The translations under genes were made by a program, and so were the position numbers. Shown here in pieces: positions 10,209 to 28,472 of a stretch of DNA of 32,000 bases. The stretch comes from an uncultured archaeon (GTDB taxonomy: Archaea > Asgardarchaeota > Jordiarchaeia > Jordiarchaeales > Jordiarchaeaceae), in assembly GCA_964510585.1 (NCBI GenBank), contig CAZECW010000126.1, positions 1 to 32,000 on the forward strand. Direction: 5' to 3'. A model generated the notes under the pieces. The model did not search any database. It was not told the DNA's origin and saw only the letters and a list, made by a program, of their open reading frames with translations. Position 1 is the first letter of the stretch; every line of letters begins with the position of its first letter.

Positions 10209-10357
10209 AAACCATCACCACCAAAGTCACATCAAACAGTATCCCAATACAAATATGAAATAATAACGTTATTCACAAAACTCCCTAAAAAACTAACGTA
10301 AAAAATTCCTTACAGCCCAAATTAATCATAAATATAAATAGTTAGAAGGGATTGGAC

Positions 10358-10485
10358 TGCGGCTGCCGGGAATTTCGAAAAAGGGGGGCCCTCTTTTTTT
10401 CGAACCCGGGTTACTGGCTTGGGAGGCCAATGTCCTAGACCAGAATGTCCAATAGTTACCCATACTATTTCTGGACTACAGCCGC
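10358..10485 (-). tRNA. tRNA-Gly(CCC), introns at 15/16 (10445-10470) and 59/60 (10372-10398), CCA not encoded
   Basis: Acceptor GCGGCTG/CAGCCGC, anticodon arm TTGGC-CTCCCAA-GCCAG. BHB helices GTCC/GGAC and TTCG/CGAA. Spliced product (75 nt) matches the architecture of the Gly(TCC) gene in this window. Confidence 0.92.
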
Positions 10486-27894: not shown

Positions 27895-28020
27895 GGGCTC
27901 ATAGCTCAGTGGAAGATTCCCAAAAAAGGAAGCCAAGAGCGCCTGGTTTGCAGCCAGGAGGCCGCGGGTTCAAAACCACAGAGAAAAACTCAAAAGGTGA
28001 AACTCCCGCTGAGTCCACCA
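27895..28020 (+). tRNA. tRNA-Ala(TGC), introns at 22/23 (27916-27937) and 59/60 (27975-28003), CCA encoded
   Basis: Acceptor GGGCTCA/TGAGTCC with G3.T70, anticodon arm CCTGG-TTTGCAG-CCAGG. BHB helices TGGA/GCCA (relaxed) and TTCA/TGAA. Spliced length 75 nt. Confidence 0.9.
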
Positions 28021-28154: not shown

Positions 28155-28230
28155 GGGCGAGTAGTCTAGCGGCTATGACACCGCCTTGACGTGGCGGAGG
28201 TCGCAGGTTCAAATCCTGCCTCGCCCACCA
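28155..28230 (+). tRNA. tRNA-Val(GAC), intronless, CCA encoded
   Basis: GGGCGAG/CTCGCCC, CCGCC-TTGACGT-GGCGG, GCAGG-TTCAAAT-CCTGC. Confidence 0.97.
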
Positions 28231-28260: not shown

Positions 28261-28311
28261 GTTGTGAAAAAAACTTGTTTTTGCCGTCGTCCAAATTCTC
28301 CCAGGATAGGT

Positions 28312-28472
28312 GCCGTCGTAACTATTCACAAAGAATAGCGACAAGCTTAGCCCGGGAGAGCGTCGGATGCTGCCAGAATCCCTGACAGAAGACGAAACTG
28401 AAGATCCGATTGTCGCTGGATGCTGCCAGAATCACTGACAGAAGGCGACTTCAAATCCGGCCGACGGCACCA
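28312..28472 (+). tRNA. tRNA-Phe(GAA), introns at 9/10 (28321-28344), 30/31 (28367-28396), 53/54 (28420-28449), CCA encoded
   Basis: Spliced: GCCGTCG TA GCTT AGCCCGGGA GAGC G TCGGA CTGAAGA TCCGA TTGTC GCTGG TTCAAAT CCGGC CGACGGC ACCA (77 nt). BHB helices GTCG/CGAC, CGTC/GACG, CGCT/GGCG. Confidence 0.92.

Follow-up and report, generated by a model that had tools for sequence, protein, structure and literature searches.

Pre-tRNA leaders complementary to the 3' acceptor strand in a Jordarchaeia genome: candidate decoys for the 5' acceptor strand

tRNA genes with introns close to the acceptor stem

The DNA analysed here (the window, 32 kb in all) is contig C126 of a 3.78-Mb metagenome-assembled genome with 41.7% GC (G000). 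It carries, among others, the genes of tRNA-Phe(GAA) and of the initiator tRNA (tRNA-iMet), both interrupted by introns and both preceded by a second copy of their own 5' acceptor strand (Table 1). The genome belongs to the Jordarchaeia/Freyarchaeia group of the Asgard archaea, and its EF-2 gene is 100% identical to that of 'Candidatus Jordarchaeia archaeon QZM_A3' and 89% identical to that of the complete Freyarchaeia chromosome CP147778 (G005). Hot-spring metagenomes contain the DNA of the window. In the Freyarchaeia group, 92–95% of the tRNA genes bear introns (Valentin-Alvarado 2024, PMC11291895).

Over the whole 3.78 Mb of G000, ARAGORN reported 9 tRNAs and Rfam 7–16, and tRNA-Phe, tRNA-iMet and tRNA-Thr(CGT) were missed. 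An intron-tolerant parser guided by bulge-helix-bulge (BHB) motifs gave about 13 clean tRNAs in G000; it fails on relaxed motifs and returns many low-scoring false parses. GC-rich islands were not specific as a tRNA locator (4365 islands in G000). Finally, a seeded intron-tolerant alignment located two tRNA-Glu genes, tRNA-Pro(TGG), tRNA-Ser(GCT), another tRNA-Ser and tRNA-Ala, and did not locate the tRNAs for His, Cys and Leu(CAG). Two other genes of the window lie below the thresholds of both ARAGORN and Rfam, namely a tRNA-Ala(TGC) with two introns (27895–28020, plus strand) and a tRNA-Gly(CCC) that has a T-loop intron but lacks an encoded CCA (about 10343–10432, minus strand). On the 3.58-Mb chromosome of G005, tRNA genes are strongly clustered, 31 of the 38 published ones being packed in about 0.46 Mb (1.43–1.89 Mb).

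Table 1. Coordinates of the features discussed. Positions are those of the window unless a contig is named.
Feature	Position	Strand	Remarks
tRNA-Phe, TATA-like box TTTAATAA	28253–28260	+	Direct reading; 7/8 columns invariant in five congeneric genomes
tRNA-Phe, 5' acceptor strand as copied in the leader, T + GCCGTCG + T	28282–28290	+	Exact repeat; complements CGACGGC-A
tRNA-Phe, leader spacer, D-arm complement	28291–28311	+	Minimum-free-energy fold: UUCUCCC/GGGAGAG, GG/CC, UAGGU/GCUUA
tRNA-Phe, exon 1 (nt 1–9)	28312–28320	+	G4–G7 (28315–28318), BHB central helix; invariant in five genomes
tRNA-Phe, intron 9/10, 24 nt	28321–28344	+	Hairpin CTATTC/GAATAG, then CGAC (28339–28342), then 3' bulge AA|G
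tRNA-Phe, exon 2 (nt 10–30)	28345–28366	+	Parser
tRNA-Phe, intron 30/31, 30 nt	28367–28396	+	Paralogue of intron 53/54; BHB scan, alignment, parser
tRNA-Phe, exon 3 (nt 31–53)	28397–28419	+	Anticodon GAA; parser
tRNA-Phe, intron 53/54, 30 nt	28420–28449	+	Alignment, parser
tRNA-Phe, exon 4 (nt 54–76)	28450–28472	+	CGACGGC 28462–28468, A73 28469, encoded CCA 28470–28472
tRNA-iMet, TTTAAATA box	24174–24167	-
tRNA-iMet, leader copy TAGCGGGA	24125–24132	-	Invariant in six genomes; pairing with the 3' strand 0.98–0.99
tRNA-iMet gene	23944–24110	-
tRNA-iMet, exon 1	24110–24101	-
tRNA-iMet, intron 10/11	24100–24071	-	Central helix G5–U8 with GUCC
tRNA-iMet, apparent micro-exon GGTAG, 5 nt	24070–24066	-	Conserved
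tRNA-iMet, second intron	~24065–24036	-	Tentative boundaries
tRNA-iMet, intron 29/30	24019–23991	-
tRNA-Tyr locus (L184)	contig C4, ~42951–43211 (plus-strand coordinates)	-
EndA paralogue	19612–20208	+	PF01974
Other EndA paralogue	contig C157		PF01974

The duplicate that the initial annotation had reported in front of tRNA-Phe is genuine. Indeed, TGCCGTCGT occurs at exactly two sites of the window, 28282–28290 and 28311–28319, both on the plus strand, when 0.06 matches are expected from shuffles and two matches were obtained in none of 100 shuffles. The downstream copy corresponds to nt -1 to 8 of the tRNA-Phe(GAA) gene (28312–28472). This gene parses into four exons and three introns (9/10, 30/31 and 53/54), and has orthologues in four congeners and in one metagenomic relative. 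Once spliced, the tRNA is a normal cloverleaf: its acceptor stem has 7 bp, the D, anticodon and T arms are all present, and so are U8, A14, GG, U33 and TTCAAAT. After the acceptor strand the parse reads TA|GCTT.AGCCCGGGA.GAGC|G|TCGGA.CTGAAGA.TCCGA|TTGTC|GCTGG.TTCAAAT.CCGGC, as befits an archaeal tRNA-Phe. The TATA-like box is read directly where it had been annotated, and the usual archaeal spacing would place the transcription start at about 28283 ± 3. From this spacing the whole copy is probably transcribed; the predicted start being its first base, a start 3–4 nt further downstream would truncate it.

In the 9/10 intron, CGAC pairs with G4–G7, as annotated, beside the 6-bp hairpin CTATTC/GAATAG, and a BHB scan gives a 4-bp central helix and an adjacent 6-bp inner helix. 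In G004, the intron has CGAT instead of CGAC and a G-U pair keeps the central helix. Because G4–G7 are needed by both, the acceptor stem and the 9/10 splicing motif are mutually exclusive. The 5' bulge of the motif, UA|A, is clean, and the 3' side AA|G faces G1-C2-C3, yielding a 3x2 internal loop in place of a bulge in the minimum-free-energy fold. The motif departs from canonical hBHBh' motifs in its flanking helices, since its outer helix is offset by the unpaired G1–C3. This outer helix comes from the leader (UAGGU with GCUUA, and further pairs).

Direct reading also bears out the pairings that had been announced: the leader copy is able to form 8 bp with CGACGGCA, and GGT followed by the true 5' strand is able to form 10 bp with CGACGGCACC. 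The 29-nt insert that precedes the second copy does not read as a BHB intron, as annotated. Eleven registers were considered, none has both a central and a flanking helix, and the single register with a 4-bp central helix lacks the flanking one. A BHB at -1/+1, by which the splicing endonuclease would cut off the leader, was likewise rejected, because the four upstream nucleotides that it needs are unconserved (ATAG in G000, CCAG in G001).

The other introns of this gene vary within the genus. Introns 30/31 and 53/54 are near-identical 30-nt paralogues that change together within each genome, both being, for example, CTGCCAGAAT...CTGACAG in G000 and CTGTCAGAG...CTGGCAG in G001, a pattern that points to gene conversion or recurrent copying from one of these introns to the other. 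In G005, tRNA-Phe has one extra T-loop intron. The neighbouring tRNA-Val(GAC) (28155–28230) is intronless in G000 and G005 and has a T-loop intron of about 31 nt in G001, G003 and G004. Hence, introns have been gained or lost within the genus.

On the minus strand, the duplicate annotated for tRNA-iMet is also real, TAGCGGGA being found at 24132–24125 and at 24111–24104. The 29/30 exon junction is fixed, because the iMet genes of G002 and G005 are devoid of that intron. These genes also show the identity of ATCCCGC, which had looked like a copy of the iMet 3' strand carried by an intron and is actually the 3' strand of the D stem plus G26-C27. For the second intron, no clean BHB was found among the registers tried, and its boundaries were set by the conserved micro-exon and a normal D-loop length. 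In the micro-exon region, AAGGTAGAT is invariant in six genomes and both of its flanks are variable.

A third gene, that of tRNA-Thr(CGT), was chosen from the published list by the position of its intron before its leader was inspected, and therefore independently of any search for copies. Its first intron is at 8/9, and it is the only entry of the published G005 table with a first intron before nt 15. Its leader element UGGAGCCUUCGGUGA closely reproduces GCCUCGG, apart from an additional U, and complements CCGGGGC-U-CCA. Its pairing extends to U73-CCA and the 3' strand of the T stem, and amounts to about 15 bp altogether. The outer BHB helix is here adjacent to the bulges, the last three bases of the leader and G1-C2 (U-3 to C2) being paired with G10–A14, and the motif is strict. 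For both iMet and Thr, the predicted transcription start lies several bases upstream of the leader element.

These three leaders bear on another account of the Phe duplicate, in which the upstream copy is the mature 5' end of a leaderless transcript and 29 nt are removed by an unknown route. The predicted start does coincide with G28283, excision of 29 nt would leave one and the same mature tRNA whichever register of the repeat were used, and the copy is conserved like an exon. However, no register forms a BHB, and the 9/10 motif uses the downstream copy, directly adjoined by a perfect 6-bp inner helix. In G001, G003 and G004, nt 8 would turn out as C rather than U unless the cut fell within the seven bases that are invariant in both copies. 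In Thr, the extra U would bulge in the acceptor stem, and conserved transcribed bases precede the copy. In iMet, the predicted start precedes the copy by about 13 nt. We rejected this account, which is very improbable, on position 8 of the three congeners and on the extra U of Thr. The description of the leader as a mere copy also has to be amended. The duplicate is exact in Phe, but the Phe spacer is complementary to the D arm, and the Thr leader, with its extra U, pairs with the CCA end and the T stem.

Occurrence and conservation of the leader elements

The initial annotation had counted the duplicate in two of two tRNAs with acceptor-invading introns and in none of six others. This tally stands inside the window. 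Genome-wide, three tRNAs have both features, about 44 have neither and one, tRNA-Tyr, has the duplicate only, counts that rest on an incomplete tRNA catalogue (at least His and Cys are missing) to which Phe and iMet were added partly via the counted feature. Leader copies and introns that draw on acceptor bases go together genome-wide in G000, and they do so in the complete congeneric genome G005 too.

G000 was scanned for 7-mers that recur within 60 nt and whose complement lies further downstream, in front of NCCA. Nine matches were obtained, against two on the reversed genome, and three of them are the tRNAs for Phe, iMet and Tyr. Nine further G000 tRNAs, whose first intron is at nt 15 or later or which have none, carry no leader copy. 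For G005, the published tRNA table has 38 genes and lacks Phe and iMet; 39 G005 tRNAs were compared here. When the 45-nt leader was paired with the tRNA's own 3' acceptor strand and N73, the duplex energies were -14.3 kcal/mol for Phe, -14.1 for iMet and -10.7 for Thr(CGT), and they ranged from +1.5 to -7.9 kcal/mol for the other 36 published tRNAs. With a 16-nt 3' end, the three reach -17.9 to -21.0 kcal/mol and the rest no better than -11.8. The three strongest leaders are exactly those of the tRNAs with a first intron after nt 9, 10 and 8, and the next first intron is at 15/16.

The leader elements are as conserved as the exons. Among five to six congeneric species, all of their columns are invariant, 8/8 in Phe, 8/8 in iMet and 15/15 in Thr. 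In Phe, these are the first 8 nt of the copy in five genomes, the ninth being T or C. In the same species, the intervals from the TATA box to the copy have 16/22, 17/35 and 6/29 invariant columns for Phe, iMet and Thr, respectively (39/86 in total), introns have 55–74% and trailers 5–43%. Such a contrast, 31/31 in the elements vs. 39/86 in the leader DNA next to them, is strong evidence against a neutral remnant of a tandem duplication, which would have diverged at the rate of the surrounding non-coding DNA. Thus, the observation itself is real, recurrent and under selection. Since both the acceptor and the copy are invariant in the congeners compared, no compensatory changes between them are seen, and the acceptor is invariant in all six congeners and in the metagenomic relative.

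The exception found in the genome-wide tally, tRNA-Tyr, is informative on how such copies arise. In G000 (contig C4, minus strand), a 15-nt insertion, CCCGCAGTAACTTTA, repeats nt 1–12 just upstream of the gene. The resulting 12-nt leader duplicate is present in G000 and G001, without an acceptor-invading intron, and the insertion is absent from G002–G005; from its distribution, this 5'-end duplication is evidently recent. Therefore, 5'-end duplications do arise in this lineage, and the leader copies probably arose as small duplications of the 5' end, of a kind still occurring in it.

The same insertion, in these two genomes only, would suit a purely mutational coupling, in which 5'-end duplications or fragile sites produce both the copy and the intron and the copy hitch-hikes without function. 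In the window, 28282–28310 and 28311–28339 share 20 of 29 positions (11 of 20 if the repeat is left out), a hint that the copy with its spacer and exon 1 with its intron may be two tandem units that have since diverged, and a copy-like element also exists in an intronless relative (see below). We nonetheless hold this explanation to be quite improbable. The contrast in conservation between the elements and the flanking leader DNA speaks against it, and the complementarity of the Thr leader, which reaches the CCA end and the T stem, cannot be produced by duplicating a 5' strand. Moreover, the Tyr copy, which has no intron beside it, has already diverged between its only two carriers.

Natural contrasts to the G000 arrangement were looked for among wider relatives. 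A first pattern search of metagenomes gave no match, and an order-level pattern search for further orthologues gave matches in coding DNA only. A syntenic tRNA-Phe was found on three metagenome contigs (L173, L181 and L183), with tRNA-Val(GAC) upstream and neighbouring proteins that are 66–72% identical. In these genes, the acceptor and the D arm are identical to those of G000 and the 9/10 intron is absent. Their leader is homologous, and the position of the copy reads TGCTGTTGT, that is, with two C-to-T changes. A normal acceptor stem is predicted for them (P = 0.92–0.97). In Atabeyarchaeia, tRNA-Phe has neither the 9/10 intron nor the copy. These contrasts fit the idea that the leader acts as a decoy for the acceptor strand. 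As the intronless relative has a copy-like leader, there was either a loss of the intron or an earlier origin of the copy. This relative also keeps the stretch of the leader complementary to the D arm, so that part of the conservation of the leader is independent of the intron.

Predicted folds and a proposed role for the leader

The Phe precursor, taken from the copy onward, has a minimum free energy of -70.4 kcal/mol (z = -5.0 vs. shuffles). In this fold, the copy is paired with the 3' strand, the spacer with the D-arm exon, and G4–G7 with CGAC. The duplex of the copy with the 3' acceptor strand and N73 is worth -14.4 kcal/mol, with a pairing probability of 0.96–1.00. That of the spacer with the D arm is worth -17.7 kcal/mol, vs. 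-8.2 ± 2.6 for shuffled spacers, 8 of 2000 being as good (p about 0.004). Three genomes have a 5-nt deletion in the spacer and keep the two main D-arm helices. Without the leader, the acceptor stem of the Phe precursor forms and the BHB central helix is absent.

Partition functions were computed at 37 and 65 °C for 15 natural precursors, representing the three tRNAs in four to six species each. With the native leader, leader and 3' strand pair with a probability of 0.77–1.00, the true acceptor stem stays at about 0.00, and the central helix of the BHB reaches 0.59–1.00 in 12 of the 15 precursors. It is weak despite the leader in the other three (0.00 in iMet of G002, 0.04 in Thr of G004, 0.23 in Thr of G005). 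Without the leader, the acceptor stem has a probability of 0.90–0.99 in 14 of the 15, Thr(CGT) of G005 being at 0.16, and the central helix falls to 0.00–0.02. Shuffled leaders give intermediate values. The effect of the leader that had been predicted is thus found in the calculations, where the 3' strand is sequestered and the central helix formed with the leader, and the acceptor stem formed without it.

From these results, we propose that the stretch at 28282–28290 has a function within the 5' leader of pre-tRNA-Phe, where it acts in cis as a decoy for the 5' acceptor strand, a reading to which we give a probability of about 0.55. In the model, the 9/10 BHB could form only if G4–G7 pair with CGAC of the intron and not with C66–C69. 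The leader would be transcribed first, its copy U-GCCGUCG would pair with the 3' acceptor strand and A73, and its spacer with the D-arm exon. This surrogate acceptor helix would close the precursor, leaving the true 5' strand in a BHB arm that the splicing endonuclease can cut, and we infer that the enzyme requires this leader-bound fold. Removal of the intron would take away the extra stability of the fold. Strand exchange would then follow splicing, the true strand capturing the 3' strand in a helix that GGU extends to 10 bp, and RNase P would remove the leader last. The same design would operate in tRNA-iMet, with its 10/11 intron, and in tRNA-Thr(CGT), with its 8/9 intron.

This reading, put forward in the initial annotation as a placeholder strand, is sustained in part. 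The link with the introns, the exon-like conservation and the predicted folds agree with it; the displacement step and the Tyr duplicate without intron do not. Displacement had been expected to be favoured by the longer true helix. In the energy model, the leader-bound fold is still preferred by 2.2–7.4 kcal/mol after intron removal. For Phe, this preference goes from 11.9 to 7.4 kcal/mol when the first intron is removed and to 5.2 when all introns are. Upon splicing, it goes from 10.4 to 4.0 kcal/mol for iMet and hardly changes for Thr (7.0 to 6.7). As two-dimensional energies keep the leader-bound fold, release would have to come from tertiary folding, proteins or capture by RNase P.

A fold that outlasts splicing would also suit a leader that pairs with the 3' end for protection or ordering. 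The leader would then mask the 3' strand and the CCA until splicing is done, instead of helping the endonuclease, an open acceptor stem exposing the 3' end to 3' exonucleases, premature RNase P action, reactions at the CCA end and aminoacylation. The Thr leader, whose 15 or so base pairs include U73-CCA and the 3' strand of the T stem, exceeds what is needed to free nt 3–6, and conservation and association with introns speak for this role as much as for the decoy. Of the single-stranded tail, however, the Phe leader covers only A73 and the iMet leader only A73 and C74. Furthermore, the predicted all-or-none effect on the central helix is directly explained by a decoy. We regard protection as the main role of the leader as unlikely. 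The two roles share one structure and are not mutually exclusive.

The enzymes that the decoy model calls for are largely at hand. G000 has two EndA paralogues (PF01974, at 108 and 80 bits), both encoded by open frames 206 aa long. With two subunits of about 200 aa, the enzyme may well be a heteromer, a form that accepts relaxed BHB motifs. RNase P RNA (RF00373) is detected at 165–173 bits in G001, G003, G004 and G005, and the same search gave no match in G000 or G002. Its presence in four congeners makes an assembly gap the probable reason for its absence from G000, and, together with Pop5, which is present in G000, it indicates that ordinary leader removal is available. As for RNA, the runs that contain this DNA consist of contigs in genomic form and show neither starts nor spliced joints. 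Two of them, labelled "metatranscriptomic", resemble unspliced DNA of a strain like G001, and an RNA-seq run yields a 57-nt contig over 28338–28391.

Significance and relationship to known systems

An intron close to the acceptor stem creates a conflict in folding, as its splicing motif and the helix that closes the tRNA require the same bases. A decoy encoded in the leader would, if true, be a simple RNA-only solution to this conflict. It would fix the order of processing, with splicing before 5' trimming, and would explain why standard finders miss these genes and why Phe and iMet are absent from the published list of the genus. Asgard archaea are the closest known relatives of eukaryotes, and their tRNA genes are unusually intron-rich. 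If the decoy reading is wrong, strictly conserved leader elements still demand another explanation.

At odds a little short of even, we tentatively suggest that these leaders form an undescribed class of cis-acting pre-tRNA leader, in which a surrogate 5' acceptor strand and a complement of the D arm or 3' end hold the 3' end. An intron may then use acceptor bases, 5' maturation by RNase P would wait for splicing, and introns could settle at positions 8–10. The statement of the initial annotation that the mechanism is undescribed agrees with our search, as no cis leader mimicking the 5' acceptor strand was found in the open-access literature, nor any placeholder element described for tRNA splicing. 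Two strands that compete for one partner are familiar from the mutually exclusive helices of attenuator-type elements and from rRNA processing stems. The decoy resembles attenuator-type elements in that a processing step is proposed to tip the balance, a tipping that the present in silico energies do not predict.

BHB introns at non-canonical positions of archaeal tRNAs have been described (Marck and Grosjean, 2003; Sugahara, 2008, as cited in PMC11291895), and the tRNA genes of Freyarchaeia and Atabeyarchaeia have been shown to be rich in introns, with several introns per gene on record for the present genus (PMC11291895; bioRxiv 10.64898/2026.10.13.758758). The introns of G000 are like these in their 4-bp central helix, the endonuclease family and the group of organisms; of the two flanking 3-nt bulges of the published geometry, the 5' one is clean in the 9/10 intron of tRNA-Phe. 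They differ from the published Freyarchaeia list in that tRNA-Phe and tRNA-iMet are absent from it (PMC11291895). Leaders are mentioned neither in that paper nor in the 2026 preprint, where the word "leader" occurs 0 times (bioRxiv 10.64898/2026.10.13.758758).

The nearest parallel lies in the split and permuted tRNAs of Nanoarchaeum, Caldivirga and Cyanidioschyzon, in which leader and trailer pair (PMC4090602, PMC3978253, PMC3218864). In both cases, a sequence outside the tRNA is complementary to a part of the precursor and builds a structure for the splicing endonuclease. In split and permuted tRNAs, the leader and trailer themselves form the BHB and the endonuclease cuts them off. In contrast, the G000 leader forms no BHB of its own (11 registers) and would be removed by RNase P, and it pairs with mature sequence, that is, the 3' acceptor strand and the D arm, where it mimics the acceptor strand.
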